A DNA stretch of 64,000 bases from a virus. A program made the position numbers and the translations under genes. A model generated the notes under the pieces. That model worked only from the letters and a program-made list of their open reading frames with translations. It searched no databases and was not told where the DNA came from. The first letter of the stretch is position 1. Each line of letters opens with the position of its first letter. Shown one piece after another: positions 3,485-56,178 of the stretch. The DNA lies in the IMG/VR virus record IMGVR_UViG_3300047494_000229, positions 1 through 64,000 of that record; one strand, given 5' to 3'.

Positions 3485-6400
3485 ATGTATAGATTATATC
3501 TTGGGAGCCTTGCTATGGCAGCAATTTCGCCTCTGACGCTGATTTTTCAAGCGGTCGATCAGGCATCGCCAGTAGTCAAAAATATAATCGCTGGACTCAA
3601 AGAGAATGTCGGCGTAGTCGGTGCTTTGAGTCTTGCGTACAACGAAACTCAGCAGGCGATCGCCTCATTCGCTGCCCAAGGTCAAAAAGCTTACGATCTA
3701 TTGATTGGTCAAAATGTCGAATTACAAGGGCAGTTATTGGCTACCCAAGCATCTCTAGTAGCCACTAATAAGGTAATCTCGGAAGGTTTCGAGGTTAAAG
3801 ACCCGACTAGGGCAATTCAGACATTAACTGAACCTGTAAATCAGGCGATCGCTGACTTGAGAAAAGGTTCCTTTGATTTAGTCGGTGTCACATCGAACGA
3901 TTTAATTCCACTATTTCAATCAGTAGCCAACGAAAGCTCGAAAATTGGAGCAAATCTAGAGCAATCTGCTCAGTTAGCTCTAGGATTTGGGGCAGCTACT
4001 CAGACCCTAAAAATCCCACTCCAGCAAACAAGCAATGAGCTAAAACTGATATTAGAGGGGCAAGTTTCCAGTGAAAATAGGTTAGCAACTGCCTTAAATT
4101 TGAATAACGAAACAGTTAATCGATGGAAATCTCAAAATATATTTGTTGAGGAACTGAATAAAAAACTGGCAGTATTTCGAGCCGGTAATGCTCTCGCTGC
4201 CCAAACAATTGATGGGGTTACAGCAAATATCAAAGAATTATTTTTAGAGTTTGGCAGGGTTGCGGGTGTGCCTTTGCTACAACCAGCTGTCACTCAATTA
4301 AATACTTTATATGAATTTATTAAAAACAATAAAGATGCTATTCAAGAGATCACGGTTTCTGTTGTCAATTTCTTTTTGGAGCTAGCTACAAAGGCAGGAT
4401 CGGTGTTAACAACCCTACAGCCAGTATTTCAAACTTTATCTGAGGCTGGATTTAGATTACTTGCAGCAGAAGGAGATGCAGCCGCCGACGCATTAACTTT
4501 GGTAGTGGATATAATTGTTAACTTAGTAACGGTGGCGACACCTTTATTGCAGGTATTGGCGAATATTGTCGATGCTTTAACAAAAATAGTTGATACCCCT
4601 TTTGGCAGAATATTACTTGAGACGATCGCTACCATAATTTTATTAAATAACGCTTTTACTGCGGCAACAGTAATTGTTAGTTTATTTACTGCGGCACTAG
4701 CTGCAAGTGGTGGTGGTGTAGTGGGATTTGGAACTGCATTGGTTGCAACATTCCCCATACTGGAAATATTCCCTGTAGCGATAACTGCTGGTACTACTGC
4801 ATTGACTGCGTTTACAGCATCGGCGGCGGCAGCAGGTGGTGGTGTAGCTGGTTTTGCTGCGGCAGCAGCGATCGCAGTTCTACCACTTGCAGCACTAGCA
4901 GCAGCCGTCGGGTTAGCTTTTACTGTCCGCGAAACCAAGCGGTTAGAGGAAGCAAACGACGCGCTCGACGAATTTAGCACTCAGGCGCAAGACTCAGGCG
5001 ATCGCGCCGTGGCTTTAGCATCAAAACTTAAGGCTCTCAACGATGCCGAACGTGATAATGGTAAACTGACCCAAGAGCAGGCAAAGCAACTCAAAACTTT
5101 ACAGATAGGTGCGGCTGGGCAATTAGAGGGATTAAAATCACAGTTGGCAGCTATTAAAGAATTAGTTCCCGCCAACGAAGACCAGAAAAATGCTCAAGCG
5201 GCACTTATTAAACAAACTGAAACTAGTATTAGTTTGTTACAAAAACAATCAGGTGCGGCCAGGCTTTTGTCTAAGGATTTACCCCAATTAGGGAATGATT
5301 ATGAGCAGCTGAGTAGAAAAGTTAGTAATGCCCTAGCTCAATTCAATAAACCAGCCAGCGCTGACCAGTTCAAAGCTTCAAGCAAAGAAATTGTCGATCT
5401 CAGTCAGAAACAATTTGAGATTGGACAGCTTACCGCAGAGCAGGTGATCGCCCAACTCAATCAAGTCCGAAATGACACACGCGTAGAATTTGAATTAAGG
5501 CGATCAGCAGCTGATGCCATCACCAAGATTCGCCAAGGTGAAACCGACAAACAAGTAAAAATCAGTGAGGAGCAACAGCAGAAAATCCAAGGGTTAATCG
5601 CCTCCGAGGGAATCTCCCAAGCGGAAGGGCAGAGGCAAATTACCCAAGCGAAATTCAAAGAGCTAAACCTACAATTGGATGCTGTCAGAGCTGCGATCGC
5701 CGCCGAAAATGCCTTGAGAAAATCCCAAGTAGATACCCAAGTAGCAGGAATTGACGCACAGATAGCAGAGGCGCAAAAACGCCTAGCAGAAGCACAAGGC
5801 AAAGGGGATAAGGGAGGAGCCAGAATTGCAAATGAAGATATTACTAGGCTTGAATCCCAGAAGGCAGCAGCCCAAGCATCCCTTGGGATTGATAGTGATC
5901 GCCTCTCCCAGTTAAAATCTCAACAACAGAAATTCTCCACTGAAATTGCTCAAACCGAGGGGCAAGAACGGCAACGAGTTAGGCAAGAACGGTTAAAAGA
6001 CTTTGATGAACAACAGCAAATATTAGATTCTCAAAACGCTCAAAGGTTAATTACTCAAGAGCAATTTAACGATCGCTCCCTTCAAATTGCCCAAGGTAAA
6101 GCGAAAACTGAACTCGCCCAACTGGAGGAACAGCGCGGTAAATTATCGGCTAATGATAAGGAGGGACAGGAGGCGATCGCCGCCAAGGAAGCGCAGGTCC
6201 GTCAAAAGTTGGCAGAGTCCACAGAGAAATTTGAAGCAGATAAATCCAAAATCAGGATCGCAGCTGTTGATACTGAGCAGAAACAATTGGCGGATAAATT
6301 AGCTGAAGGGGAAGTAACTCAGCAACAGTTTAACCAACAGTCCTTGGCATTGACCCAAAAGCGATTACAAGCTGAACTTGATGAGGTGCAACGTCAACGG

Positions 6401-11749: not shown

Positions 11750-13114
11750 ATGAAAATCGGTTACGTCAGAGTTTCAACAAGAGAGCAGGATGAGGGCAAC
11801 GCCCTAGAGCAACAGACATCACGGGTCGAAAAGGCTGGTGCTGTTCTTATATTCTCAGATGTTGAGTCTGGGCGATCCGAAAAAAGGAAAGAATTCAATA
11901 AAATGCTTGCTTTATGTAAGCAAGGTAAAATAAATGAAATAATTGTTACGCGTATTGATCGGCTGGGACGTAGTGTAGTTGGAATCCACAAGGCGATCGC
12001 TACCTTTGAACAGCACAAAGTCAAGCTAACAATATTAGATGCCCCAGTCGATCCATCGTCACCGTTTGGCTGGTTTTCAATTAACCAAATGGCTGGACTA
12101 GCAGAATTTGAATCTAGGCTATTGTCCAACAGGATTAAGAATGGGCTAATTTATTTCCGGGAGCAAAAAAAAGCTTCATCACGTCCGCCTTTTGGATATT
12201 GTCGAGTAAATGAAAAATACGAGCCGGACATGAACTTGCACTTGGAAAAAAGCAAATGGGCAATCGCATCTGAATTTATTGAATATTTTTTAAGTGAAAG
12301 CACTACACTCAGAAGCACATCTCAATACATATTAAAAACTTTTGACATTTCATGGACGGCAGCAGGATTAAGATATTGGCTACTAAACCCAGTGTTGCAA
12401 GGACACACGGTTTATGGTGTTAAAAACAACCTAAGTAACCCGGAGAATTGGGATATTTATGAAAATACTCATGAACCTCTAATTGATAAAAATAAACTTA
12501 AATTAATACAGAAAAAACTTGAAGAAAATCGACACAAATATAGTTATGGCAATGGTAAAAAAGGGTCTGAATTATTACCTTTAGCTGGACAGATTATTTG
12601 TGGTGATTGCGGGTATAAGTGCTTTTGTAAAAAATCAAAGTATTTAACTTACAGAATTAGATGCAAAAAGCACGAAAATCTAGGAAAAGACTTTTGCAAG
12701 AACAGTAACAGCACTTATTTACCAGATGTCATCAAGGCAATAGATAGCGCCTTAATAGAGCGTTACAAGGAAATTCAAAAATATATAGCCGATAGTCTAG
12801 AGGCGAAGCAACAAGATAGCCTTGATGTGCTTGAAAGAACAGAACAATTAAAAATGCTTAAATCATTACCAAAAAATTCCATCATTCAAAATGCAATTGA
12901 TCAAACAATATTAGAAATACAAATCTTAAAGCAAGAAGAAATAACTGTAAAGCAAGTAAATAATGAGTTATTTGATATTCTTTCTTCTTCTTTTAGTAAT
13001 ATTTGCTACTGGAGTGAAATTGACTGGAAAGACAAGCGGTCGATTTATAAGGAGTTAGTCGCTTACGTAAAAGTCTTAAATGGAGAAATACTAGAAATCA
13101 AGCTACGGGTTTGA
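11750..13114 (+). CDS. large serine integrase (XisF-like)
   Basis: GYVRVST catalytic Ser, ESGR, TRIDRLGR, PPFGY recombinase domain, CGDCG...C...C zinc ribbon, coiled coil. Confidence 0.95.
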   Translation: MKIGYVRVSTREQDEGNALEQQTSRVEKAGAVLIFSDVESGRSEKRKEFNKMLALCKQGKINEIIVTRIDRLGRSVVGIHKAIATFEQHKVKLTILDAPVDPSSPFGWFSINQMAGLAEFESRLLSNRIKNGLIYFREQKKASSRPPFGYCRVNEKYEPDMNLHLEKSKWAIASEFIEYFLSESTTLRSTSQYILKTFDISWTAAGLRYWLLNPVLQGHTVYGVKNNLSNPENWDIYENTHEPLIDKNKLKLIQKKLEENRHKYSYGNGKKGSELLPLAGQIICGDCGYKCFCKKSKYLTYRIRCKKHENLGKDFCKNSNSTYLPDVIKAIDSALIERYKEIQKYIADSLEAKQQDSLDVLERTEQLKMLKSLPKNSIIQNAIDQTILEIQILKQEEITVKQVNNELFDILSSSFSNICYWSEIDWKDKRSIYKELVAYVKVLNGEILEIKLRV

Positions 13115-29542: not shown

Positions 29543-30613
29543 ATGCAATCGCTTGGGTATCTCATGCAAGTATCAACTTTTAAAATTGGCTCCATTGCCT
29601 CTGGTATGGGGATGCATCTGCACGGGTTAAAAAAGATTGGTGGGGTTCCCGTGTGGGCGATTGAATGCGATGAGGCGATCACCCGTTGTTACCAGCAAAA
29701 CCATCCAGAGTCCCGCATTATTTGTAATAAAGTCCAAGATGTGGCGATTGATGATTTAGAAGATATCGATTGCCTCACAGTTACACTCAGCTGTAAAAAT
29801 GCCTCAATTAGTCGAGGTGCTGATTGGGGTGAGACTGAGCAAGATACAGCAGCAGCAACGGCAGCGGCGAATATTCTTCGGGGTAAGCTACCAAAGTTCT
29901 TTTTGCTAGAAAATGTCTGGAGATATCGCACATTTGAATCTTTCCGCATTTTCAAGTCTGCACTGGCTGAATGCGGCTACTATTTCCGTTACTACAAACT
30001 TAATTGCAAAGATTGGGGCGTGGCCCAATCACGCGATCGCCTCTATGGAGTTGGCGTAAGACACGGAGCATTTTGGGACATCACTGAGCCTTCACTTCCT
30101 ATCTTGGGATGGTATGAGGCGATCGCTGATATGATTCCAGAATTGCCTCTTGTCAAGCTTGCACCTTGGCAGATAAAGAAGTTTCCATGTCTGGACTCTA
30201 CTTGTTTAATCCCCGACCATTCCAACTGGACAAGCCTTGTTTCTGTTGCTCAACCTGCACTAACGGTAAGAGCGGGGCATCAATCATTCAAAGCATTGAT
30301 TAAACACGCTGGGGGCGGTCGGGACAATGATCGCCTCTACCACTCTGACGAACCATCATTTACGATTCGGGCGCTAGGAAGAAGCGCAGATCACCATTCA
30401 AAATTGGCGGATGCGATTATAGGGGATAGAGTCGTTGCAGTCACTCCCCGCGCTTGTCTACGCTTCTTTGGGGACAAGGAAACAGCAGATAGTATTTGGT
30501 TGCCTCCTACCAAGTCACTGGCTATGGAGGTAGTGGGGAATGGGGCATCATGGGTGATGTTTGAGGCATTGGGGCGATCGCTATTTTCGACCCCAAACTG
30601 TCGGGGTACGTAG
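29543..30613 (+). CDS. C5 cytosine DNA methyltransferase
   Basis: SIASGMG (I), TLSCK (IV variant), LLENV (VI), QSRDRLY (VIII), VGNG (X). Confidence 0.85.
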   Translation: MQSLGYLMQVSTFKIGSIASGMGMHLHGLKKIGGVPVWAIECDEAITRCYQQNHPESRIICNKVQDVAIDDLEDIDCLTVTLSCKNASISRGADWGETEQDTAAATAAANILRGKLPKFFLLENVWRYRTFESFRIFKSALAECGYYFRYYKLNCKDWGVAQSRDRLYGVGVRHGAFWDITEPSLPILGWYEAIADMIPELPLVKLAPWQIKKFPCLDSTCLIPDHSNWTSLVSVAQPALTVRAGHQSFKALIKHAGGGRDNDRLYHSDEPSFTIRALGRSADHHSKLADAIIGDRVVAVTPRACLRFFGDKETADSIWLPPTKSLAMEVVGNGASWVMFEALGRSLFSTPNCRGT

Positions 30614-32894: not shown

Positions 32895-33413
32895 GTGCTT
32901 TATAACCATTACGGCATACCCCAAACACGCGATCGCTCCTATGGCGCAGTCGCAGCCCTCACCTATTGGGTTTTTAAGTGCAGGGATAGAAGAAAGTCCC
33001 CAGCGATGGGGATAAAAACCTGGACTTTCTTGGAATCCAGTATCAGAAATTCGGCAGAGATATCTTCTACTTTGGAAGATTATTTACAGCGACTTTGTGA
33101 CAAACTTTTCTCCCAACTCCGTCCAGTGGAGTTGACTAAAATAATTCAGCCACAGCAGCGCATCTTGAGAGTAAATCTTGATGCAACTGAAATCAAAGAA
33201 TTGCCAATTGACCAAAACTTAGTTTTTATGGGCTGGCTAGATTTGGTTGCTGATATTGCGCCTCACGGTTTTAGTGAGTGGGACTTACTTGAGTTATGTC
33301 GCACCAAAGCGGGGATAATTCAAGTGCTTTGTCGCCTCAAATTTGAAGAGGATCGGGCATTAAGGATGGATGAGCCGGAAGATGCTATTGAGGTAGGAGC
33401 AATTGAATTATGA
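32895..33413 (+). CDS. cas11: type IV-B small subunit (Cas11-like)
   Basis: Helical 172 aa ORF (W.F....IRNSA..SSTLEDYLQRLCDKL) directly upstream of csf2. Confidence 0.6.
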   Translation: MLYNHYGIPQTRDRSYGAVAALTYWVFKCRDRRKSPAMGIKTWTFLESSIRNSAEISSTLEDYLQRLCDKLFSQLRPVELTKIIQPQQRILRVNLDATEIKELPIDQNLVFMGWLDLVADIAPHGFSEWDLLELCRTKAGIIQVLCRLKFEEDRALRMDEPEDAIEVGAIEL

Positions 33414-33571
33414 AGGAAATCAAAGAAGTCGCTAGCGCCCTAATTAATTTGCAAGATCACGGTGGTGATTGTATGTGCAATATCTGCCAAAAAGACCAAC
33501 AAACGATTGAGAAAAATCCTGAGATAGCGGAACAACTTACTGTATTGGTGAACAAAAAAATAAATGTTTGA
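33410..33571 (+). CDS. 53 aa HxxxCxCxxC microprotein, copy 1
   Basis: MKEIKEVASALINLQDHGGDCMCNICQKDQQTIEKNPEIAEQLTVLVNKKINV; ATGA overlap with cas11, overlaps the csf2 start; paralogue at 42276-42443. Confidence 0.85.
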   Translation: MKEIKEVASALINLQDHGGDCMCNICQKDQQTIEKNPEIAEQLTVLVNKKINV

Positions 33572-34703
33572 AAATTACGACATCTGTGATCGTTGCCGCC
33601 TAACTCTCCACTGCGTTTTCACCCCCCAACTTCCTTTGTCTCACATTGGGGAAGTGTCAGGAAATGTCAGCAACTTAAAAACAGTGAAGCTGCTTGATTT
33701 GGAGGGACAATCAAGACAGTGCTTTGTGTATTCAGGGAACGCCATTCGCAACGGTATTTTGCGGCGGGTTGGTGTAGCAGCTGCCCTTACAGATTTGGAA
33801 TTACAAGTCAACCCCGACGTGCATCAAACCATGTTCGCCGGTGGACGAATTGACGGTAGCACCGCATCAGACATGGAGTTAGACAAGAAAATCCGTACCT
33901 TTTTGCCGTGGCTTTCAGTGCTGGGAACCGCCAAACCCACAAAAGTATTTGGTTCCAAGGATCCTCAAATGGTTGCAGGGCGGATTAATGTCGGCTCTGC
34001 TCATTTAATCTGTTACGAATCAGCTGCTTACATTTACAATCAAATGCCAGGGATGCTGCCTCCAGAGGCGTTAGAGGGAATTGGGAAAATATTGGAGGCG
34101 CAGAAGGCGATCACCCTTGACCCAATGAGTTTACCAACAGCAGAGGCGATCGCCGCTTACAACGAGGTGAAGGCACAGTATCTACCATTGCTCCGTAAAG
34201 TGCTGCGGACATGGACAGAATTTATCACGGTTGACCAAACTACCCGCCGTGACAGTCTTCTTGACCCCAATTTAATTAAGTTTCTTCCCCCTGAAGCACA
34301 GAATTTATTGAAAGGGGAAGGGGGGAAGGAGAAGAAGTCTGACCAAATGATTGCGGGCGATCGTTTGATTATGGCGGGGTCAAAACTTTACTCGCGTTGG
34401 GATTTAAACACGACATCCGTGGAAGAAGGTTGGGTGTATGATGCATTACTGAAGTTCGATGAATCTCCGTACCTTGGAGGGAAGGGGCAAAGGGGTAACG
34501 GGCTTATATCCCTAGATATTTGGTATCAATCGGGTAAAGATTCTGGGATATTGTGCAGCATTGGTAAGCGTGCAGAGTCGGGGTTGTTGAGCGATAGATT
34601 CCAAGAACAGCACGGACGTTACAGAGAGTATATCAATCAATACCGCGAGTTCTTGACGGAAGCAAAAGACTCCAGCGAGTTAAAAAGTTTGTTAGGAAAT
34701 TAA
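33564..34703 (+). CDS. csf2: type IV CRISPR Cas7-family backbone protein Csf2
   Basis: PLSHIG, SGNAIRNGILRR, MFAGG, P.LSVLG, TRRD, YLGGKGQRGNG glycine loop. Confidence 0.9.
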   Translation: MFENYDICDRCRLTLHCVFTPQLPLSHIGEVSGNVSNLKTVKLLDLEGQSRQCFVYSGNAIRNGILRRVGVAAALTDLELQVNPDVHQTMFAGGRIDGSTASDMELDKKIRTFLPWLSVLGTAKPTKVFGSKDPQMVAGRINVGSAHLICYESAAYIYNQMPGMLPPEALEGIGKILEAQKAITLDPMSLPTAEAIAAYNEVKAQYLPLLRKVLRTWTEFITVDQTTRRDSLLDPNLIKFLPPEAQNLLKGEGGKEKKSDQMIAGDRLIMAGSKLYSRWDLNTTSVEEGWVYDALLKFDESPYLGGKGQRGNGLISLDIWYQSGKDSGILCSIGKRAESGLLSDRFQEQHGRYREYINQYREFLTEAKDSSELKSLLGN

Positions 34704-34791
34704 TTTGAATTGGTACTTGCCAATTCAAAAACACTTTGCTGCTATTGGTACATACCAAAATAAAAGGGCGGTAGAGCCCAAAGGATAAAAA

Positions 34792-34905
34792 ATGAAGCTA
34801 ATCAAAGAAACAGTGAATGGACAAGAGTGGACTAACGGTCACAGGGATTCATGGGTGCAGCTTGCCATCCTGGAGAAAGGCAAGAAGGCGGTTCTCACTG
34901 CATGA
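34792..34905 (+). CDS. 37 aa micro-ORF coupled to csf3
   Basis: MKLIKETVNGQEWTNGHRDSWVQLAILEKGKKAVLTA; AAGGA RBS; ATGA overlap with csf3. Confidence 0.55.
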   Translation: MKLIKETVNGQEWTNGHRDSWVQLAILEKGKKAVLTA

Positions 34906-35624
34906 AACCATTGAAAATAACTGCCGTAATGGGAAGTGCGATCGCCTGCTACGACTCCTATTCTCCAAGTTTAGATTCGCTCCTTGAGTGGCTAATACTG
35001 GATAAATTAAACCTCACTTCTCCCAATCCCACACCGGAACAAGTAGAAGCGACGCGCCCCATAGTTGACCGAGAGATGCCATTAGCCAAAGGCGAAGTTA
35101 TGGGTGAATGGTATTGGCAGGTTTCTTCACCCTGCTACCGCATTGTGAGCGAATATACAGATAGATACCGCAAGCGCTGGCAGCCAGGAATTGACAGTCC
35201 TCCTCCAGCGTGGGGAAAACGTAAGGCTAAATGGTCAACTTCTGAAGGGGCAGAGAAGAATTACGATCTGCCTTTATATTGTCGTAATACTCCGGCAATT
35301 AATTGGTATGCGGTGGGGGATAGGGAGGCGATCGCCCAACTCCTACAAAACTGTACCCATATTGGCAAGAAGCGATCTTATGGCAATGGACAGGTTTTGC
35401 GATGGCAAGTTGAACCAATAAAAGAAGACTGGCATCTGTGGCGTGATGATAAACTTATGCGTCCTATGCCATACAGGTTGTTATATTCAGATCCGCGAAT
35501 TTTGCAAAATGAACCTGTAATGATGAATTGGGGATGGCGTCCGCCTGCGTGGTTGCCTAGCAATAAAGAAGTGTGTGTAATGCCAAAGGGGAGTGTATGC
35601 CACTTAACTACGGCACAGGTTTGA
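34902..35624 (+). CDS. csf3: type IV CRISPR Cas5-family protein Csf3
   Basis: LKITA.M, LDSLL, WYAVGD...I..LL...HIGKKRSYGNG.V..W.VE, RPMP, GWRPPAW. Confidence 0.9.
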   Translation: MKPLKITAVMGSAIACYDSYSPSLDSLLEWLILDKLNLTSPNPTPEQVEATRPIVDREMPLAKGEVMGEWYWQVSSPCYRIVSEYTDRYRKRWQPGIDSPPPAWGKRKAKWSTSEGAEKNYDLPLYCRNTPAINWYAVGDREAIAQLLQNCTHIGKKRSYGNGQVLRWQVEPIKEDWHLWRDDKLMRPMPYRLLYSDPRILQNEPVMMNWGWRPPAWLPSNKEVCVMPKGSVCHLTTAQV

Positions 35625-36346
35625 CCGCGCCTTGGATGAAGAAAAAAGTAGATAGGGCGATCGCTTGTATTGAAGACTGGGTAAGTAAGTGTGATCGCCT
35701 CTGCTATACCTCAACTAGTGGTGGCAAGGATTCCTTGGTAACTGCTCACCTCATCCGCCACGTTTACCCTAGCTGCCCAATGGTGTGGATCAATCAAGGG
35801 CATTTAGCAGAGTGGCCTGACTGCATTGAACTATTGCAGTTTTTAAAAACTCAGGGATGGAACATCGTTGAACTATGTCCAGTGCGCGATTTGTGGCATT
35901 TGTACCTCGACTTGGGCATTCCATTGGAAGGGAAAATGGACACCAAAGCAGATAAAATAATAAACCAACGGTTAATGTACGACCCGTTGGAAGAGTACCA
36001 AGAGCTTAACAATATCAAGGGTTACGCTTGGGGTATTCGTAAAGATGAAAGTCGCAACCGCGCTTTTTACTTGCGGAAGTGGGGAGAATTACACCAACTG
36101 AAAAACGGACTGTGGTGTTGTTCGCCTGTGGCATTTTGGACGGTACAAGATATCTGGCTATATATTGACCAGCAGAAATTGCCTTATCCTGCCATGTATG
36201 ACCGCGATCGCCTCACCATCCGCAACGGGCCACCCATTGGTACAACCGGGGTAAACTGGGGGCGGTTGGCGGAACTCAGAAAACACCACCCTGATTTGTG
36301 GCAGCAGTTTGTAGAGAAATTTCCAGAGGTGCGAGATTATGGCTGA
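35597..36346 (+). CDS. cysH: CysH-like PAPS-reductase-family (PP-loop) protein
   Basis: SGGKDS PP-loop, WGIRKDESRNR, P.AFWT..DIW.YI....LPY..MYD. Confidence 0.9.
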   Translation: MPLNYGTGLTAPWMKKKVDRAIACIEDWVSKCDRLCYTSTSGGKDSLVTAHLIRHVYPSCPMVWINQGHLAEWPDCIELLQFLKTQGWNIVELCPVRDLWHLYLDLGIPLEGKMDTKADKIINQRLMYDPLEEYQELNNIKGYAWGIRKDESRNRAFYLRKWGELHQLKNGLWCCSPVAFWTVQDIWLYIDQQKLPYPAMYDRDRLTIRNGPPIGTTGVNWGRLAELRKHHPDLWQQFVEKFPEVRDYG

Positions 36347-36995
36347 TTTGTGTTACCTCTGCGGAAAACCTGCAACCAAACCACTAGAACTCAAGGATAG
36401 TTTCACCAGCCATTCTCAATGCCGCATCCCCACATCAAATAAGATGTGCGATCGGTGTCACTCAACAATTGCCGGCGACCAAAAACAACTCTGGTACTGG
36501 AACGAGGGTAAAAATAAGTGGAGCAAATTGTGGGGGCGATCGCTCTCCCGAATTTATCAAGGCGATAAACTACTCGCTCCCGTGATTGAAGGGGAAAAGG
36601 AAGGTTTGCCAATAGTCAAAAACCTGCTTACCCGTGTTGAACTTCGCGGTTTTTTACTTAATCCCCCACAACCGCCATTTACTATAGCGATCGCCGAGTC
36701 AGGGCAGAAGCATATTCTGCCGTGGGCACAAGAGGCGTTAAACCGTGTCATTTTCCCAGTACAATTCGAGCTTGATACTGTGTATATAGTTTACGCCCAA
36801 TTTACTGTGCTACTGGGCTTTTATGAGCAGATGATGACGCTGGGATTTTCAAAAACTGAGATTGACACTGGGGATTATCGGAGCGACAGATTGATGCAAA
36901 ATCTAGAAATTTGGGAGCCACTGGAAGAGGTGATCGCCCCGATGCGTGGAACGAGATTGTTACAGTTAATTTCTTTTGTGGGACAAATTCAGTGA
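36339..36995 (+). CDS. csf1: type IV CRISPR large subunit Csf1 (Cas8-like)
   Basis: CYLCG...SFT...CDRC zinc finger; NPPQPPF.IAIAESGQKH. Confidence 0.85.
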   Translation: MADLCYLCGKPATKPLELKDSFTSHSQCRIPTSNKMCDRCHSTIAGDQKQLWYWNEGKNKWSKLWGRSLSRIYQGDKLLAPVIEGEKEGLPIVKNLLTRVELRGFLLNPPQPPFTIAIAESGQKHILPWAQEALNRVIFPVQFELDTVYIVYAQFTVLLGFYEQMMTLGFSKTEIDTGDYRSDRLMQNLEIWEPLEEVIAPMRGTRLLQLISFVGQIQ

Positions 36996-40459: not shown

Positions 40460-40531
40460 TTTTGCTCAGGTCATGAGGGCGATCGCGTGTCTAGTATAGC
40501 AGCGACATGATTTTGGGTAATGGGTAAAAAT

Positions 40532-40690
40532 ATGCACATCAATGTTTCTACTATTCGCCAAGCTTTTCAGCTAGCTGCCACTTTTATTCTGGATATCGAA
40601 ACACTTTTTGGTGGTTCGGCTCCTGCACCTAGTGGCAACCTGCAAGCGCCAGAAGCATCGGCTAGCGCTAGTTCAACTGCCGCTCAGTAA
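40532..40690 (+). CDS. 52 aa hypothetical protein
   Basis: Manually translated MHINVSTIRQAFQLAATFILDIETLFGG...AAQ. Confidence 0.4.
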   Translation: MHINVSTIRQAFQLAATFILDIETLFGGSAPAPSGNLQAPEASASASSTAAQ

Positions 40691-40880
40691 TCCTTAATCC
40701 TTGTTGATGGGCGATCGCTGCTAGGCGTTCTATGTCATTAGCGATCGCCACTCCTACTTGTGCAGAAGTGATTGGCAAGATTTCTATAGCCAAAATCTTC
40801 GTATTCTACCCACCTGATAGATTTGCTTTTAAGGACTTTTTCTCTAGGTAGTAGAGACTTTTCAGTTAATAAGCTATAAA

Positions 40881-41777
40881 CTACATTCTTCTTTGAATTG
40901 CGGCATTAATCACTTCTTGACTACTAGAAGAACTGGTGATGTTTGCCAAATTCAGGAATAAGTTTACTTTATCCCTAGCCTGCTCAAATGTTAGTCTTGG
41001 CGGATTATTGATCACCAACTTGACTAAATCTGAGTACCAGTATCGGGGCGATCGCAAAGTCAACCCCGCATCAATAACTTTCTCGCGCCACCCATCTTCG
41101 GGCAGGATTTCTTGGTCTTCTTTCCCCAAATACCAATGTTTGCTAACTTGGGGCATCCAAGACCCCATATTCGCATCACAATACCTTAACCCTTTCACAT
41201 CCATGAAATCATATCCCATCGCCTTGATTTCTCTAAGAAACGACAATTCAGAAACCCCAGCAATATAAGGATGGCAGATGGGAAGAGTTAAAACTCCGTA
41301 GTCCTTTGCCAACTGCAAAGTTTTGAGGTGCTGTTTAACCGTAAACCGTTCAATAGGCGGTTCATTTCCAGTGATGCCCAAGACAAGGGCAAAATTGGGA
41401 ATTTTGGCAAGCCTCGACATAATGCGATCACTAATTGTCCATTTGCTGACACAAGTAATGAGCTTGGCGATAGGCGAAACTTTCTCAACCCAATGCCACA
41501 AATACTCATCAAGTACTGGGAAAAATGGATCTGTGATGGCTGTGAATCCAACGATATCCCCAGCCAGGATACCCCACGGAAAACTATAAAAACGTTCTTG
41601 CTCTTGGGGATTGTCCTTAATGAAGGGAGAAACATTAACAAAGCTACAAGCCTTGTTAATGCCCGCAATTGGGTTCTTATTCCACACCTCCCGACGGGTG
41701 TCATGCTCTGTTATAAAGCAATATTTGCAAGCCACGGGGCAAGCAGATTTGCCGACTTCAAAACGGAAGGATTGCAT
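40881..41777 (-). CDS. radical SAM protein (SPL-like TIM barrel)
   Basis: CPVACKYC (CxxxCxxC), TDPFF, VSKW, PICHPYIAG. Confidence 0.85.
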   Translation of the reverse strand: MQSFRFEVGKSACPVACKYCFITEHDTRREVWNKNPIAGINKACSFVNVSPFIKDNPQEQERFYSFPWGILAGDIVGFTAITDPFFPVLDEYLWHWVEKVSPIAKLITCVSKWTISDRIMSRLAKIPNFALVLGITGNEPPIERFTVKQHLKTLQLAKDYGVLTLPICHPYIAGVSELSFLREIKAMGYDFMDVKGLRYCDANMGSWMPQVSKHWYLGKEDQEILPEDGWREKVIDAGLTLRSPRYWYSDLVKLVINNPPRLTFEQARDKVNLFLNLANITSSSSSQEVINAAIQRRM

Positions 41778-42279
41778 CTAATATCTCCGAAAATACTGAA
41801 TCTTGATCAAGTTCACCATTGATGGTGATTAATTTGTTTTTTTGTTGCCAAAACTCTAGTAACGGAGGAAGGCGATCGCTCTCTAGCAATAGTCTTTCCG
41901 CGCTACTTAGTTCATCTCCTCTAGCTCGAATTTGACAACGTAATACTGCAATATTTGGGGAAATTTTAAGATAGATAACAAAATCTACCTCTTGAACGAC
42001 TTTGGCTTGATTGATATTGCGAGGAAAGCCATCGATTATCCAAGAATTTTTAGCACATATTGGCTTGGCTATTTCAATGGCGATCGCGTCTGGCAACGGA
42101 AGCCAAGTTTTACTATCGCCCCAATACGAACTAATTCTTTGGCTGAGTTCGGTTTTATTTTGAAATTCCGCTCTCACTAAATCCCCCATACTATAATGGA
42201 GGACTGTATAAAACTCAGATAGATTCTTACCCTGAGTGCTTTTTCCAGCACTGGGAAGACCTAAGAGAACTATCTTCAT
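41758..42279 (-). CDS. adenylate-kinase-family NMP kinase
   Basis: GLPSAGKSTQ P-loop, SMGDLVR, IDGFPR...QA. Confidence 0.9.
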   Translation of the reverse strand: MKIVLLGLPSAGKSTQGKNLSEFYTVLHYSMGDLVRAEFQNKTELSQRISSYWGDSKTWLPLPDAIAIEIAKPICAKNSWIIDGFPRNINQAKVVQEVDFVIYLKISPNIAVLRCQIRARGDELSSAERLLLESDRLPPLLEFWQQKNKLITINGELDQDSVFSEILDAILPF

Positions 42280-42443
42280 TTGTTTTTTGTAGTTAAACTA
42301 GCAACGGCGCTAGCGACCTCTGGATTTTTTGAAATCGTTTCCTTGTCTCCCTGACATTGACTACATCCGCAATCAGCACCGTGATCTTGCACGTTTGCGA
42401 TCGCTTCACAAACCTGCTTAATTTGATTAACTTCTTTTGACAT
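42276..42443 (-). CDS. 55 aa HxxxCxCxxC microprotein, copy 2
   Basis: MSKEVNQIKQVCEAIANVQDHGADCGCSQCQGDKETISKNPEVASAVASLTTKNK; ATGA overlap with the kinase gene; paralogue of 33410-33571. Confidence 0.85.
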   Translation of the reverse strand: MSKEVNQIKQVCEAIANVQDHGADCGCSQCQGDKETISKNPEVASAVASLTTKNK

Positions 42444-43638
42444 TAGCTATCTCCAAAATTTGTACAGGACTCATACCCACTGTTACTTGTAGTTCGGGAG
42501 GCAAGACATCCTGAAACATCGACAAAAAACAGTAGGCGCATTTTAAGCATTTATTCTTAGGGATATACTCACTCCAAACCATCCAGCTATTGACTGCATA
42601 TAAATCATTGGCTAGCCCAAAGCGCGGGTGTAGCCGAATGTTAGAATTTTCACCTGGTGGAATTGCGGGGTCTGTTGCTAGCATTCCCCCGGTGATAAAC
42701 CGAGCAAAGCTCATCTCGCCCCAAGAGGGCATTTTGTTATCCCAAGTGCGAATATTGATGTAAGGCATCCCCATGTCGGGAGCTTTTGGGCAGTTTGTGC
42801 AGCACAAGCTACACTGCGATCGCACTTCTACCGCGCATTTTTGATATCTTTCTGATGCTGTATGCACTTCAACTTGAAAGCCCAAATAACGCAGCAATTC
42901 CACACTATGCGGAACTGGCTGCACAAATTGAGCAGTTCCTGCACAAGAATCAGAAATAGGACAAGAATTGCAATCAACAAAGTTTGGCGCGTTGTAATAC
43001 GGCGAGAGCGATCGCTTTTTTTCTGACAACGCCGTAACCGCGCACTGGGTTCTAGTCCAATATGGGACTTTTAGCCATTGGGCTAATTCCCGCATATATC
43101 CTGATGTTGCCTGCGGGGTAATTTTGAGTGTTCGCATCCACTCTTGGTTGTCAGGTGCAGAGATACCCTGCATCCCAGCGTCTCTAACAACTTGTTCATC
43201 ACCACGGAAGCCACTTGAGACAACCGCGTGGCATCCCGCATCAACCGAACGTGTAAACATCTCTTTGATAACCCGTGGATCATCGTTGAGAGTGTGAATA
43301 ATTGGGCGAATATAGGCGATCGCCTTTGCTCCCGACTCACGCGCAGCACTCAAAGTCTTGTACCTTGATTCAGTTGGTGCTGGCTCCATCTCCTTGGGAA
43401 GGTGGGAGATGGAAGCAAATACAAACAAGTTTAAATTAGCTGCCCAATATTTCAAGCGCTCTCGCCACCAAGGGCTAGACAAATCGCCTTTGGTAATCAG
43501 GGCAACTGGCCCCGTATGGTGATCGCTCACCAATTGATTCAATTTAGCTGCTGTACTTTCCCTCAAAATAGAGGGATCAGCCAAATTATTTACACTGACG
43601 GGCAAATCTCTGAGCAATCTTAGCCATTCTTCCTGCAT
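42427..43638 (-). CDS. radical-SAM-like barrel protein with C-terminal Cys clusters
   Basis: ADP, LITKG, SIS.LP..MEP, IAYIRPII..LND; no N-terminal CxxxCxxC; CNSC..C, CSLCCTNC and CLKCAYC in the C-terminal half. Confidence 0.65.
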   Translation of the reverse strand: MQEEWLRLLRDLPVSVNNLADPSILRESTAAKLNQLVSDHHTGPVALITKGDLSSPWWRERLKYWAANLNLFVFASISHLPKEMEPAPTESRYKTLSAARESGAKAIAYIRPIIHTLNDDPRVIKEMFTRSVDAGCHAVVSSGFRGDEQVVRDAGMQGISAPDNQEWMRTLKITPQATSGYMRELAQWLKVPYWTRTQCAVTALSEKKRSLSPYYNAPNFVDCNSCPISDSCAGTAQFVQPVPHSVELLRYLGFQVEVHTASERYQKCAVEVRSQCSLCCTNCPKAPDMGMPYINIRTWDNKMPSWGEMSFARFITGGMLATDPAIPPGENSNIRLHPRFGLANDLYAVNSWMVWSEYIPKNKCLKCAYCFLSMFQDVLPPELQVTVGMSPVQILEIANVKRS

Positions 43639-44087
43639 AATTTAAAAGACTCCTTTGGATATACAAGACAATGTGGGTCGCTGAAGGGGATGAACGGATT
43701 GTGCAGGCTCTCAACCACCAATCCCTCATTCCCTGATTTAAATGTGTGGAGTATCCCCCTTGGCATCCACACCCGGATACCGGGATGGAGAGGATAATGC
43801 AGAATATTTTTGTCTCTATAACAGACAAACTCGCCACTACCTTCAAGGACAGTTACTCTGCGATCGCTCTTGGGATGAGTGTGGAGGCGATTATCTTCTG
43901 TCGATTCCGGGGGGAATCGGACAATTAGCTGGCCCAACTCTCCCCACACTGCCTTGATTAGCAGGGCTTCCATGTATTCTTCGTAGGCTACCCAATCGCC
44001 TTGAGGGATTGGCGCACAAGAAAGTTCAACTTTTTCAACGCCGCCACGCTTCCAATTTTGACGGCATTGTTCAGCAAAATTAATCAA
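43620..44087 (-). CDS. cupin-domain protein
   Basis: LHTHP....VTVLEGSG and LHPG..VWMPRGILHTF cupin motifs. Confidence 0.85.
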   Translation of the reverse strand: MINFAEQCRQNWKRGGVEKVELSCAPIPQGDWVAYEEYMEALLIKAVWGELGQLIVRFPPESTEDNRLHTHPKSDRRVTVLEGSGEFVCYRDKNILHYPLHPGIRVWMPRGILHTFKSGNEGLVVESLHNPFIPFSDPHCLVYPKESFKLCRKNG

Positions 44088-44144: not shown

Positions 44145-44396
44145 TTATCTCCAAACAAAATAAGTTTTCTTAATATCATCATCACTTCCCTCCACGAATT
44201 CTTCTTGTCTCTTGCTTGAGAAGCTGTGCAGACTTAACAACAGCGTCCCGATCACACCTTTTCTGTGCTGCTGCTGAAAACTGCGCCACTGAAGGCGGTT
44301 TTGAACTCTTTCTCTAGCATCAATAAGGTTATTTGTATCTTGGTAGTTCATTTCTGCTTCTACTTCAGCAAGTAAATCAGTAAAAAAATCAGACAT
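44145..44396 (-). CDS. hypothetical protein
   Basis: 83 aa, overlaps the HNH gene. Confidence 0.5.
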   Translation of the reverse strand: MSDFFTDLLAEVEAEMNYQDTNNLIDARERVQNRLQWRSFQQQHRKGVIGTLLLSLHSFSSKRQEEFVEGSDDDIKKTYFVWR

Positions 44397-44829
44397 TACG
44401 TACTCCTTCGCTTAATAATTTAAACCCTAACTTCAATCGCTCTTCCCATTTCTTGGTAGCGTGGTTATCCCAGACTGGGTTGCTTTTACTCTTAATCCAG
44501 TTTTCGCTTTTGTGACTGCGATCATGGCAAGCTTTACAAAGGGGGAAAACAGTAACACCAGGGCGATCACTCCCATACTTTGTGTGATGAACTTCAGTTG
44601 AATTTCGCTTCAGGCAACAACAGCAAAAACCTTTAGTGGACTTATGGGTGATCGCGCACAACTGTTTATATTTTTCTAAATCCCCATAGCGATCGTCCCA
44701 GCTTAATCCAATCCCAGTTCTTTTAGTAGATACTCTAGCCCTCGGTCGTTTAGTTGTTTTCCTGTTAGCTCTTCCCACTTTGCCCTTACTTGTTCTCGGT
44801 TTGGCAATTGAAGTTGTGCGTTTAGCCAT
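44389..44829 (-). CDS. HNH endonuclease-like protein
   Basis: CCCC....TEVHH..Y......PLCKACHDRSH. Confidence 0.75.
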   Translation of the reverse strand: MAKRTTSIAKPRTSKGKVGRANRKTTKRPRARVSTKRTGIGLSWDDRYGDLEKYKQLCAITHKSTKGFCCCCLKRNSTEVHHTKYGSDRPGVTVFPLCKACHDRSHKSENWIKSKSNPVWDNHATKKWEERLKLGFKLLSEGVRNV

Positions 44830-46163
44830 TGTTTGATTTCCTCAAGCCAGTCAGTACTAGGCTGTGGCGATTGTTTTTCCCTCTGTTTTTCGCTCGCCCC
44901 TGCCTTAATTTTGGGGATAGCTTCAACAAAAGGCTGTCCAACATTAGGAATACAAACGCAACAACGAGCGTCCTTACCAATCCAATAATTTAAATCACTT
45001 TGCAAATCAGGAGCGATCACCTTGAATGGGAAACCTGGGTCTTGCACCCATTTTAAAGCTTCGTTGCCCACAACTAACCGAGTAGCCGAGTTGAGGTCAG
45101 ACCGACTAAATCCGTTAGTTGTAGACAAAGGAGACTGCCCAATTATTACCAGAGTGAAGTTATAGGCAGCTGCTTCCTTGAGGATGCGTAATGTCATTGA
45201 GCGAATCTCAACTGCGTCATCTTTAGGGATTATGTCGCCGTAACCTTTGCCTTCACCCCAGATAGAATCCCACTCGTCAATTATCAAAACGTAGCGTGGG
45301 AAATCAGGGTGCGAGATACCCTTCTCTTCAGCCTCAACACACTGCTTTTTCCGAATATCAAGCGCCTTAATAGCTGTCTCCACACCAGCTTTTACCTGCT
45401 CAAAGCCAATGAAGCTAGGTTTAATTGTCCATCTGGTTTTTGGGTATTTGGGGTCAATTAGGTTGGTTACGAGCTTGCTACCATTGTGAGCGATCGCCTG
45501 ATTGAGTAAATCTAGAATGCAGCTAAATAGTGTAGATTTCCCTGATTGCGAACCACCATCAATTTTTAAATGGTGATGCTTGCGGCGATCGGGGTCAATT
45601 TCTGCCATCTCTTCAACAAGCGCATAAATCCAATCCATGTTGGCCACAGGGTCGGGTTCTGGCTCGTATTCAACAGATTCAGGAGACGCATTGCTCGATA
45701 CCCATCCCGGAACAGAGGGGGAAGTGGGGGCATCAACAGTAACAGACGGCAATATCCCTTGTAGCCCAAACATAACAATCCATCTCTGCTGCTCATGCAA
45801 TGGTTTTTGAGCAATATAAGCTGCTAATTCCCTTTGCGCCTCCATTCGCTGTGTCGCCGTATTAAAAGTTAACTCTGATTTTAGCCCTTCTTTGAGCATC
45901 AAATTTTGAGCATCACTCAGTGACTGGTACAAACGTTCTTTTTTCTGACGCAGATAAGCACAACTTGTAAAAGCTGCCCCGCTAGTTACGCCGTAGAGCA
46001 TTTGCAGGAGTTTTGTTACTTTGTCTTGCTGAGGAATCAACACCGGAGAGAAGGTACAGGCGATCGCCCCTAGCGCCAATCCTCCCATAATTAAGCGTTC
46101 GGCGTTGACTTGGCGTTCAATTAAGGTTTGTAATCCCTGAAAAATATTAGTTGACTGCTGCAT
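44703..46163 (-). CDS. membrane-anchored FtsK/coupling-protein-like ATPase
   Basis: Two N-terminal TMs, GGSQSGKST Walker A, IDPK, LIIDEW Walker B, IIGQS. Confidence 0.8.
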   Translation of the reverse strand: MQQSTNIFQGLQTLIERQVNAERLIMGGLALGAIACTFSPVLIPQQDKVTKLLQMLYGVTSGAAFTSCAYLRQKKERLYQSLSDAQNLMLKEGLKSELTFNTATQRMEAQRELAAYIAQKPLHEQQRWIVMFGLQGILPSVTVDAPTSPSVPGWVSSNASPESVEYEPEPDPVANMDWIYALVEEMAEIDPDRRKHHHLKIDGGSQSGKSTLFSCILDLLNQAIAHNGSKLVTNLIDPKYPKTRWTIKPSFIGFEQVKAGVETAIKALDIRKKQCVEAEEKGISHPDFPRYVLIIDEWDSIWGEGKGYGDIIPKDDAVEIRSMTLRILKEAAAYNFTLVIIGQSPLSTTNGFSRSDLNSATRLVVGNEALKWVQDPGFPFKVIAPDLQSDLNYWIGKDARCCVCIPNVGQPFVEAIPKIKAGASEKQREKQSPQPSTDWLEEIKQWLNAQLQLPNREQVRAKWEELTGKQLNDRGLEYLLKELGLD

Positions 46164-46437
46164 AAACACCACACACCACGGCGATAATTGCAATTGTCCC
46201 AAGGGCGATCGCGGGAGCAAATCCTAAAACCATTTGCCACTGGTCAATATATGAATATCCTTGGTCATAGCGTTTACACCAGTTTTCATATCCAGTTACC
46301 AGAATACCGATAAAGCCCAAAACTAAGATTAATAATGCACCACCACGAGCTATTGGGAAAGCAGCGGCGATATAGCCGAATAGTTGAAATAGGGAATACC
46401 CAGTGAGCAACATTCCTCCCCAGAATAGTGTTTTCAT
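46147..46437 (-). CDS. three-TM membrane protein
   Basis: Hydrophobic 96 aa ORF in the ATPase operon. Confidence 0.6.
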   Translation of the reverse strand: MKTLFWGGMLLTGYSLFQLFGYIAAAFPIARGGALLILVLGFIGILVTGYENWCKRYDQGYSYIDQWQMVLGFAPAIALGTIAIIAVVCGVYAAVN

Positions 46438-53734: not shown

Positions 53735-54076
53735 ATGGCACTTACTTTGACAAAAGTTATTCAGACAGAAGAAAGTTTTACTGTTGGCGAAAACTTGGAA
53801 AAATTAATTATTTACACTAAGTCTGAGATAGTGGCAATAATCAATAGACAGCAAGTAGCAATAGTACCTCATCCTTCAAAAGAAAATTTAATTAAAAATA
53901 AAATAAAAAATAATCTGCTTAGTTTTGGATGGTACTACTTTCCAGAAAAAGAGCTAGAAGAGATAGAAGAAAAACTTGATGAAATAGCAGATTTTTTCGC
54001 TAATGCCGATTCTGGAGAGAAGACAATCGGGGAGGGCGAGGTTAAATCATCTTTAATGATTTTAGTTAAAGACTAA
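53735..54076 (+). CDS. hypothetical protein
   Basis: 113 aa. Confidence 0.5.
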   Translation: MALTLTKVIQTEESFTVGENLEKLIIYTKSEIVAIINRQQVAIVPHPSKENLIKNKIKNNLLSFGWYYFPEKELEEIEEKLDEIADFFANADSGEKTIGEGEVKSSLMILVKD

Positions 54077-54291
54077 ACTAGAGGTAATTATTTATCATAC
54101 TACAATATAAAATACAGAATGTACACACTAGCTAAAGTTGCTGAACCTTGGGCGAAGCTCTTCCCTACAATTACGGAAAATGACACTAGCCTTAAAGTGA
54201 CGGTGCGGGGACAGAGTTTTACGATTGCGATACCGAAGAAAGTTAATCAGATCACGTCCAACAGGAATTTATCATACCGATAATGCGGTTT

Positions 54292-56178
54292 CTACTTGTA
54301 ATAACTAGCAGCATATAATGTAGCATTTTTGGGAATCCTGGATAATTTTTGAGTTAATGTTTTTTGATATAGTATTTTACCGTCACTTCCAATATTCCAT
54401 ACTTCTATATATGCTACTAAATTACCACCTTTATTAAAATCAGGAATATTTGTTATGTAAATATTATTTTTATTTAAATTATCTTTTTGAATTCGGGTAT
54501 TTATTAAATTAGTGGTGGGAACCAATGTAGGTCTACTTACATTATTTTCAGTTAAATAAGGTATCTCAACCGGAGTAGTGTAAGAAAAAAGTGTATTATT
54601 ATTAATTGCTAAATTACCATAACTAAAACCCTGTTCATTTATTTCTTCTAAATGTAAATAAGTATAAATGGAACCTTCGTTCATAATTAATGTTCCATTT
54701 ACTGAGGCAAAACTTATAAATGGTTTTGTTTCGACACTATTAATAGTTATATTACAAGTAATAGACAGAACTACTTCATCCCCGATATCTTTTGTATATA
54801 CAATGCTATTTAATACACCTCTATATAAAACATAACCATTACTATTTTTCTTACCGATTAATATTTGTTTATTAACAAATTCACTTTCATTAGGTAAACT
54901 TGTTAGCAAATTATAATTAGAATAAGTGGGATTAATTAAATTAGAAATAAATATTGTAATACCAGATGATACATTAAATGATGTATTAGATTCTAATCTT
55001 AATATTGAACTATTATTTAATGTAATAATATTATCATTAGAATCTTTATAGTAATATTCAATATTTCTTGAGATACTTATTATTCGTCCAAAGTCTATAT
55101 TACTATTATTAGGGTGTTGTCTTTTTTTAGAAATGCTTGAATTGTTTTCAGAACTATAAATAATACCTTTTTTAAAACATATTATTGGAAAAATACTAGT
55201 ATACGTATAGTTTTCTAAAACTATATCATTATTTTCAGTAGTTGTTAAAGTAAAAGAATAATCAAAATTGTCTGTATCTATATTAGAAGTATTTATACTA
55301 TTTACTGTATTGTTTTGTGTACTTCTACTATCATGAAAACCATAATCAAAAGAATTAAATAAATAACTAACTGAACCAGTTTTAAATTGATCTATATCAT
55401 AATCTAATGTATAAAAATATGTGGGTGAATTAAAGTTACCCGTGTAATTATAACCTGACACATCGTTACCAGTTCGTATTATTGAACCAGAAGCAAGACT
55501 ATCAAATGGATATACACCATTATATAAAACATTATTAAATTCTCCTGAAGATGATATTCTATTTACAACAGGAGATAAATTATTACTTTTCCATATACAG
55601 GAACCTTTGTAATCAATACTATTATATATTGTTATACCGTCTATATTATTTTGAATAGATGTCAAAATACCGTCTATGTTTTTTTGATGATAACTAAATT
55701 TATTTGCGTAATTTAAAATTATAGTTCCAGCATTATCTATATTATTTGAAAACGCCAATCTATATTTACCACCATCATTATGAATATACGATCGAACATA
55801 ATTACTGCCAAAATTATCAGGTAATGTAATTAAATCAGTTGTAATATTATTAGATGCGTATACTTTATTATTTAGCGAGTAGAGATAATAGAGGTTTGAA
55901 ATTTTAGTTCTTATACTATCAGTTTTTCTATATTCAATAATTCTCCTTGTAGACTGGACTATGTTTAAAGTCGGTTCCCCCACTAAATACCAATTACCCT
56001 TATTAGTCAGGAGGGCGATCGCCTCTCCCGCATCTAAATCCACTAAATAAGTTGCACTAACATCAGCACCATTAATTTTTAAGCTGACGTTTTGCCCCGC
56101 GACACCCTTGGGAATACTCATGGGAATCATGTTGGCGATCGTGAATAGGCTTTTAAGCTGGCGATCGGTTATTTCCAT
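54292..56178 (-). CDS. putative receptor-binding / tail protein with AT-rich variable body
   Basis: Ordinary N-terminal ~85 aa, then Asn/Ile/Ser/Tyr-rich sequence in AT-rich DNA. Confidence 0.55.
   Translation of the reverse strand: MEITDRQLKSLFTIANMIPMSIPKGVAGQNVSLKINGADVSATYLVDLDAGEAIALLTNKGNWYLVGEPTLNIVQSTRRIIEYRKTDSIRTKISNLYYLYSLNNKVYASNNITTDLITLPDNFGSNYVRSYIHNDGGKYRLAFSNNIDNAGTIILNYANKFSYHQKNIDGILTSIQNNIDGITIYNSIDYKGSCIWKSNNLSPVVNRISSSGEFNNVLYNGVYPFDSLASGSIIRTGNDVSGYNYTGNFNSPTYFYTLDYDIDQFKTGSVSYLFNSFDYGFHDSRSTQNNTVNSINTSNIDTDNFDYSFTLTTTENNDIVLENYTYTSIFPIICFKKGIIYSSENNSSISKKRQHPNNSNIDFGRIISISRNIEYYYKDSNDNIITLNNSSILRLESNTSFNVSSGITIFISNLINPTYSNYNLLTSLPNESEFVNKQILIGKKNSNGYVLYRGVLNSIVYTKDIGDEVVLSITCNITINSVETKPFISFASVNGTLIMNEGSIYTYLHLEEINEQGFSYGNLAINNNTLFSYTTPVEIPYLTENNVSRPTLVPTTNLINTRIQKDNLNKNNIYITNIPDFNKGGNLVAYIEVWNIGSDGKILYQKTLTQKLSRIPKNATLYAASYYK

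Follow-up and report, generated by a model that had tools for sequence, protein, structure and literature searches.

What might a phage make with two radical S-adenosylmethionine (SAM) proteins that are encoded together with a cupin, a microprotein and a nucleotide kinase? This question is raised by an operon in IMG/VR virus record IMGVR_UViG_3300047494_000229 (74,272 nt; estimated completeness 69%), which comes from a moss metagenome. The window that we analyzed is the first 64,000 nt of this record, and the operon lies on its minus strand at positions 40881-44087. We found that only two of the five genes, those encoding a cysteine-rich protein of 403 amino acids (aa) and a radical SAM enzyme of 298 aa, make up the conserved core of a cassette. 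The 403-aa protein is a circular permutant of the radical SAM core, and the usual third member of the cassette is a cysteine desulfurase, pointing to sulfur chemistry. We tentatively read the cassette as a self-contained, mobile unit for modifying a nucleotide, with insertion of sulfur as the probable reaction; we regard this as plausible and somewhat short of an even chance.

The operon belongs to a moss-associated phage. The record has strong matches to PHROG families and contains phage-type genes, and the portal and Mu-F genes directly follow the cassette in close relatives. A preliminary description of the window had called the locus phage-borne and had reported five consecutively overlapping minus-strand genes, and on both counts it was right. 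All five genes are present in the list of open reading frames (ORFs), with overlaps of 19, 17, 4 and 20 nt between successive ORFs.

We found that the grouping of the genes is not random for the two radical SAM genes. Profiles of the five gene families were used to score approximately 60 loci, which we had retrieved from collections of viral sequences, genomes and metagenomes. Loci were collapsed at 95% identity, and enough flanking sequence was required to be counted, which left 26 non-redundant loci. The 403-aa family was adjacent to and co-oriented with the 298-aa family in 26/26 of these loci, and the pairing was found in 35/40 groups when truncated contigs were included. A SufS-like class-V enzyme dependent on pyridoxal phosphate (PLP), that is, a cysteine desulfurase, was present in 19/26 loci. 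An adenylate kinase (ADK)-like kinase was found in 6/26 loci and a cupin also in 6/26, so these two genes are partly conserved. The microprotein is not conserved at all. The five genes had been described as one operon, and their conservation as a unit holds for the radical SAM pair only. A fixed set of five genes is not supported: most loci are without the kinase, of which the closest cyanophage relatives keep no more than a 62-aa remnant, and the cupin is equally infrequent. The remaining neighbors vary by locus and include structural genes of phages as well as housekeeping genes in tiny genomes.

Phages and ultra-small bacteria share this cassette, which moves between them. The nearest ESM Atlas clusters of both protein families are mostly viral. 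The cassette is also present in tiny cellular genomes without a phage context, and the profile of the 298-aa partner (A2) matched 5 of the 401 genomes (~1%) searched in one phylum of tiny bacteria. Metagenome relatives are numerous: those of the 403-aa protein form 86 clusters and those of the 298-aa protein more than 128, and members of both often lie on the same contigs. A search of 1.84 billion representative sequences with the 403-aa profile gave 297 relatives, only 35 of them at E<=1e-30. Neither radical SAM gene was found by tblastn in any isolated phage in the GenBank phage collection.

The two core genes do not have the same nearest relatives. The 403-aa protein is 76-83% identical to proteins on related viral contigs (L001-L004 / L063-L066), and the 298-aa protein is 50-52% identical to proteins on the same contigs. 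In a tree of the 298-aa family, the gene from the window groups with lineages other than those viral contigs. These uneven identities and the placement in the tree indicate that the cassette is mosaic and suggest recombination inside it.

One distant locus has a different composition. On a contig (L014) from a metagenome-assembled genome of Nanoanaerosalina, a DPANN archaeon, a distant relative of the 403-aa protein (3106-4272) is preceded by a P-loop kinase-like gene and followed by a NUDIX hydrolase gene (4269-4694). No 298-type radical SAM gene was found in this incomplete genome. Two upstream neighbors at other loci (L025:2325-3281 and L013:3519-4523) were suspected to be PfkB kinases and had no relatives in the PDB.

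Is the 403-aa protein (42427-43638, minus strand) a radical SAM protein? It had no Pfam match, and in NCBIfam only residues 42-141 gave a weak match, to the middle of the Rv2578c radical SAM model (17.1 bits; cut-off 430). However, it is a paralogue of the 298-aa enzyme: hhalign aligned its residues 6-193 with residues 68-282 of that protein (95.8%, E 8e-9). Its AlphaFold2 (AF2) model (pLDDT 88.8) matched radical SAM barrels from their strand 2 onward, with Z scores of 12.4 for the domain of pyruvate formate-lyase activating enzyme (PFL-AE), 11.6 for NifB, 11.0 for LIAS and 10.0 for spore photoproduct lyase (SPL). A Foldseek search of the PDB gave weak, mixed matches to TIM barrels. The protein has, then, a radical SAM barrel fold (Z from 12.4 to 10) and homology to a canonical member. 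What it does not have is the canonical N-terminal cysteine motif next to barrel strand 1.

We found that the corresponding motif is at the other end of the protein. An invariant CX2CX2C motif (C364/C367/C370, then Y-C-F) follows a strand at residues 353-357, near the C-terminus. A sister group of the 403-aa family has the same barrel and the same internal cysteine groups; in these sisters the segment 'W.V...N..KC..C.YC' is N-terminal and there is none at the C-terminus, whereas the permuted forms carry it at the C-terminus. BLASTP of the 403-aa protein against one non-permuted sister (P0226) gave two aligned segments in swapped order (query 9-317 to subject 113-422, E 4e-36; query 348-401 to subject 57-101, E 0.003), which is the signature of a circular permutation. 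The C-terminal motif, together with sisters that have the segment at the N-terminus, shows that the 403-aa protein is a circular permutant and not a canonical member of the superfamily. The preliminary description had called it radical SAM-like and had missed the permutation, which the non-permuted sisters reveal. ThiC has its SAM-handling iron-sulfur (Fe-S) motif at the C-terminal end rather than at the N-terminal end. ThiC is unrelated in sequence and is no simple permutant of the canonical radical SAM core, unlike the protein from the cassette, for which the sisters with the N-terminal segment document the permutation.

Ten cysteines are invariant in 37/37 diverse permuted members (C199/C223/C226/C232, C276/C280/C283 and C364/C367/C370). 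This pattern suggests a three-cysteine site of the SAM type and two auxiliary clusters, approximately three Fe-S clusters altogether. The permuted form is always paired, unlike the non-permuted sisters (L071, L073-L079 and L083), most of which occur without a partner in jumbo phages (contigs of up to 545 kb) and without conserved neighbors. In one 171-aa database protein (P0229), the N-terminal half of the cupin is combined with the C-terminal 90 residues of the permuted protein, as the result either of a deletion or of an error in assembly.

The 298-aa protein (40881-41777, minus strand) has the conventional arrangement. Its CX3CX2C motif is at C13/C17/C20, and C13, C17, the aromatic residue before the last cysteine (Y19) and C20 are invariant in 22/22 homologues. 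A fold search (VIA) with its AF2 model (pLDDT 87.6) gave Z scores of 10-11.3 to PFL-AE, SkfB, viperin, NifB and BioB over approximately 190-220 residues, as expected for a generic radical SAM fold. The protein matched PF04055 below the cut-off (15.1 bits; cut-off 29.5) and only over the part with the cysteine motif, and some of its homologues hold a precomputed PF04055 match. There was no NCBIfam match. Judging from the motif and the fold, the 298-aa protein is a canonical radical SAM enzyme, predicted to cleave SAM, and the obligate partner of the permuted protein.

To which known radical SAM family are the two proteins closest? They had been described as SPL-like and not viperin-like. Their sequences are indeed nearer to SPL and COG1533 than to viperin, but the fold searches do not single out SPL: the SPL structure 4fhc scored Z = 10.0 and 10.2 against the two models, tied with many unrelated radical SAM enzymes. 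PDB sequence searches with both proteins gave nothing useful, and fold searches of BFVD returned only generic radical SAM phage proteins. PADLOC assigned no defense family to either radical SAM protein or to the cupin, and neither radical SAM protein matched a prokaryotic viperin (pVip) model. By these comparisons, neither protein would be classed as an SPL, a viperin or a member of a defense family. The SplB-like proteins of COG1533 (the Rv2578c family) are the closest annotated sequence neighborhood. The 403-aa protein differs from them in that its score is far below the cut-off (17 vs 430 bits) and in that it is permuted, with several putative clusters. The pair is also coupled to a desulfurase and a kinase, unlike SPL.

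We found that most relatives of the cassette encode a cysteine desulfurase, a partner that the preliminary description had overlooked. The PLP lysine (S-x-H-K) and the loop with the catalytic cysteine are kept in 25/25 of the SufS-like proteins of the relatives, so that the catalytic residues are intact. In two proteins (P0214 and P0216) the desulfurase is fused to the permuted protein. In a third (P0224) the non-permuted form is fused to a 298-type radical SAM protein. Sulfur insertion is suggested both by this linkage to a desulfurase and by the auxiliary clusters.

The phage operon has a cupin in the place of the desulfurase. The cupin gene (43620-44087, minus strand; 155 aa) has a TTG start with AAGGAG 7 nt upstream. 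Its Pfam matches were marginal (Cupin_1, 22.2 bits with a cut-off of 22; Cupin_2, 23.8 bits with a cut-off of 27.2), and both cupin metal motifs are visible. A full set of metal ligands (H69, H71, D75 and H114) is invariant in 5 homologues. We found no specific subfamily or relatives for it, and PDB profile matches only at E>0.7. Based on the ligands, the cupin is predicted to be a small, metal-binding accessory protein that occupies the slot taken by the SufS-like desulfurase in most relatives. No locus among the 26 had both, and the tree of the 298-aa family requires at least three exchanges between cupin and desulfurase. A domain of approximately 130 aa with an H.HP..F motif, which we call X, occurs alone or as an N-terminal fusion to the kinase (L008:9214-9618, L020:3061-3507, L046:4183-4605 and L051:6451-6915). 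It may be a second cupin-like accessory; hhalign gave no significant match to the cupin (E 0.13), and its only Pfam match was Ectoine_synth at E 0.2.

As an alternative, the cassette could be an auxiliary metabolic module for the insertion of sulfur into a target other than a nucleotide, such as a cofactor or a protein, in the manner of LipS1/LipS2 or BioB, with the kinase and the cupin as unrelated add-ons. Two radical SAM proteins and a desulfurase do recall the two-enzyme lipoyl synthase systems named in PMC10332631. In the paired LipS1/LipS2, two radical SAM proteins act jointly. BioB, LipA and MiaB/RimO have extra conserved cysteine groups beside the SAM cluster and a sulfur supply from a cysteine desulfurase, features that the cassette may share; auxiliary clusters are typical of sulfur-inserting enzymes, and in most loci the core cassette is found without any nucleotide-related gene. 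However, there is no linked carrier protein, ligase or cofactor gene. The cassette has no specific sequence or fold similarity to the BioB, LipA, MiaB/RimO or LipS proteins, including none to LipA or BioB in particular, and its cluster motifs are different. Both of its protein families are enriched in viruses, and its genes are viral or mobile rather than housekeeping. Fusions of the kinase to a radical SAM protein (below) also argue for a nucleotide, and we think a non-nucleotide target quite unlikely.

The third of the flanking genes encodes a short-LID kinase of the adenylate kinase/nucleoside monophosphate (NMP) kinase family (41758-42279, minus strand; 173 aa), with a PF00406 match of 72.5 bits (cut-off 26.8). 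The P-loop, GD..R and GFPR..Q motifs are present in an alignment to the Bacillus ADK, and, among solved structures, its best relatives are Bacillus adenylate kinases (E 4e-21). The kinase scored below every NCBIfam adk equivalog cut-off (best, PRK02496, 95.8 bits vs 262). The NMP-binding lid is altered by a T31->M change and a 3-residue insertion, and the catalytic residues of adenylate kinase are kept. There were weak matches to the PADLOC pVip-kinase (E 2.5e-4) and to VakA.

A tie between the kinase and a radical SAM enzyme had been proposed, and gene fusions bear it out. In P0093 and P0096 an ADK-type kinase is fused to a member of the 298-aa radical SAM family, giving two proteins of 486-487 aa. 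This fusion favors a nucleotide substrate. The pair would act on a small substrate that is available universally, and the kinase fusions, the NUDIX neighbor and the analogy to viperin-kinase pairs and to thmABC/AbmM together make a nucleotide the most likely one. The idea that the operon makes a modified nucleotide is strengthened to this extent, and it must be amended in that the kinase is optional and the peptide is no part of it. Absence from most cassettes, together with its decay, indicates that the kinase cannot be essential.

The analogy to viperins has limits. As in viperin and pVip systems, a radical SAM protein is genetically linked, and at times fused, to a nucleotide kinase in mobile or variable loci, a viperin structure is among the fold matches (Z 10.9), and the kinase has the weak pVip-kinase match given above. 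In contrast to viperins, the cassette has two radical SAM proteins rather than one, one of them permuted and with extra clusters, and no PADLOC pVip match. Its commonest partner is a cysteine desulfurase rather than a kinase. A second analogy is to clusters for sulfur-containing nucleosides. In Photorhabdus, 4'-thiothymidine is made by a radical SAM enzyme, a nucleoside kinase and an NTPase (thmABC), and in the albomycin pathway the Fe-S cluster of AbmM is itself the sulfur donor (PMC12691670). Like thmABC and AbmM/AbmG, the cassette is a compact combination of radical SAM protein and nucleoside or nucleotide kinase; ThmA was compared by its description only, and the AbmM structure 8wm2 was a mid-list fold match (Z 7.8). 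The kinase families differ (the deoxynucleoside kinase (dNK)-like AbmG vs the ADK-like kinase of the cassette), and the thm and abm clusters are without a second radical SAM partner and without a desulfurase.

The pair might act on a polynucleotide rather than on a free nucleotide, either by modifying a base of DNA or RNA (possibly by thiolation) against host restriction or by SPL-like repair of damage. The nearest sequence neighbors are of the SPL/COG1533 'DNA repair photolyase' type, according to source names, the weak NCBIfam match to Rv2578c and the SPL clusters in the ESM Atlas. Similar desulfurases serve DNA phosphorothioation, and the desulfurase of the relatives matches PADLOC SspA/DndA (E 1e-27). 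In addition, the phage encodes a C5 DNA methylase and has further genes for DNA handling. Several observations speak against this alternative. The cassette is not accompanied by a DNA-binding domain, a glycosylase or a transferase, and the median isoelectric points of the two radical SAM families are near neutral (7.3 and 7.6). The kinase fusions and the NUDIX neighbor point to soluble nucleotides, SPL is only one of the many tied fold matches described above, and the cassette is also found in the tiny cellular genomes without phage context. On balance we consider action on a polynucleotide doubtful.

Could the radical SAM enzymes act instead on the peptide encoded between them? The cysteine-containing microprotein (42276-42443, minus strand; 55 aa) has no family match, and its small ORF lies between the 403-aa gene and the kinase gene, to which it is coupled in translation. 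This arrangement would fit a cluster for a ribosomally synthesized and post-translationally modified peptide (RiPP), in which the radical SAM enzymes mature the embedded cysteine peptide, and the maturases SkfB and SuiB are among the structure matches. However, we found no counterpart of the peptide in any related locus, where its position is taken by an unrelated small ORF, by the 62-aa kinase remnant or by no gap at all. A search of 5.8 billion proteins returned no homologue either. Within the record, the peptide has a single further copy, a 53-aa paralogue (33410-33571, plus strand) in another accessory module approximately 9 kb from the operon. The two have 51% identity over 47 aa (BLASTP, E 2e-18) and share the motif H-x3-C-x-C-x2-C. 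The 55-aa peptide is specific to the phage lineage and lies outside the conserved cassette. Because it is absent elsewhere and its only paralogue is in the same phage, in a different module, the earlier suggestion that the operon matures the peptide fails. In addition, no RiPP recognition element (RRE) or SPASM family was detected, and the SkfB and SuiB scores tie with those of all other radical SAM folds. We rejected the RiPP reading on these grounds and consider it highly improbable. The two microproteins might be a shared metal-binding or sulfur-carrying adaptor.

The module around the 53-aa paralogue has features of its own. It includes a gene for a protein like 3'-phosphoadenosine 5'-phosphosulfate (PAPS) reductase (35573-36346), and there were PHROG matches for 33564-34703 and 34851-35624. 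The Csf2 model TIGR03115 had no match in the record, and an array-less type IV-B CRISPR label for positions 32895-36995 is unconfirmed.

Taking the cassette as a nucleotide-modifying unit, we suggest the following scheme, in which the class of substrate, the insertion of sulfur and the biological role are what we infer from the gene anatomy. The locus would be the form of this rare cassette found in cyanophages, and the invariant core would be the paralogous radical SAM pair acting together. The 298-aa enzyme would bind SAM on its N-terminal CX3CX2C cluster and start radical chemistry on the nucleotide. The 403-aa partner, with its cluster-binding strand and loop at the C-terminus (CX2CX2C) and two putative extra Fe-S sites, could be a second radical catalyst, a sulfur-donating or sulfur-carrying component, or both. 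In most cassettes the dedicated SufS-like desulfurase, sometimes fused to this partner, would feed it with sulfur. In the phage cassette, with the small metal cupin in the desulfurase's place, sulfur might be supplied by the host or in some other way. In cassettes that have it, the ADK-like kinase may raise or channel the phosphorylated nucleotide on which the pair acts, a part that kinases play for viperins. The product would most likely be a sulfur-modified or otherwise rearranged nucleotide, which could be used in virus-host conflict or for marking nucleic acid.

Several points weigh against this scheme. The desulfurase might serve only cluster assembly on proteins with approximately four Fe-S sites and not supply sulfur to a substrate. 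No class-V aminotransferase was found in the 74 kb of the phage record. Most cassettes have no kinase, the kinase has decayed in the closest cyanophage relatives, and where it is present its sequence could be that of a plain AMP kinase. In the fold searches neither radical SAM protein was closer to BioB, LipA, MiaB or AbmM than to other radical SAM enzymes.

A more specific version of the scheme makes the cassette a two-component radical SAM machine, disseminated by phages and tiny-genome symbionts, that produces a thio-modified nucleotide for virus-host conflict. The auxiliary clusters of the permutant would deliver the sulfur, and the cupin would be an alternative to the desulfurase for supplying or processing the inserted atom. 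The permuted protein has two invariant extra cysteine groups, and the desulfurase is linked in 19/26 loci and fused in P0214 and P0216; the phage record itself has none. We give this version a low probability.

A promoter and terminator scan of the locus was no better than for shuffled sequences. Contigs from RNA libraries cover only positions 40523-40681 and 40845-41092, reach the operon at no more than its 3' end and are no proof that it is transcribed; the two RNA-library data sets that touch the window are probably one set filed twice. Contigs of a DNA run (X2) did not align to the window. Immediately upstream of the operon and on the same strand (44389-46220), a gene for an HNH-type protein (146 aa) overlaps one for a 505-aa P-loop ATPase. 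The run of minus-strand genes extends to about position 48025, so the operon may belong to a longer transcription unit. The large serine recombinase (11750-13114, plus strand) and the C5 cytosine DNA methylase (29543-30613, plus strand) encoded in the window are consistent with a temperate lifestyle and DNA modification. A low-GC patch at 54001-56000 (GC 0.27, vs approximately 0.43 elsewhere) covers a 628-aa ORF (54292-56178) that had no match in Pfam or PHROG searches.

No described system matches the cassette. A limited literature search, which is no proof of absence, returned no description of a permuted radical SAM protein or of the cassette. Radical SAM enzymes form one of the largest enzyme superfamilies; the cassette is rare and unstudied. 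Comparing this clearly documented natural permutation of the radical SAM core with the non-permuted sisters bears on the positioning of the loop that holds the SAM-binding cluster. An unexplained clue lies in the strict mutual exclusion of cupin and desulfurase. The products of viperins and the 4'-thionucleosides show the biological and drug relevance of this field of nucleotide chemistry. With its mobility, desulfurase partner and kinase fusions, the cassette is a good candidate for new nucleotide chemistry, for example of thionucleotides, in the conflict between phages and their hosts.

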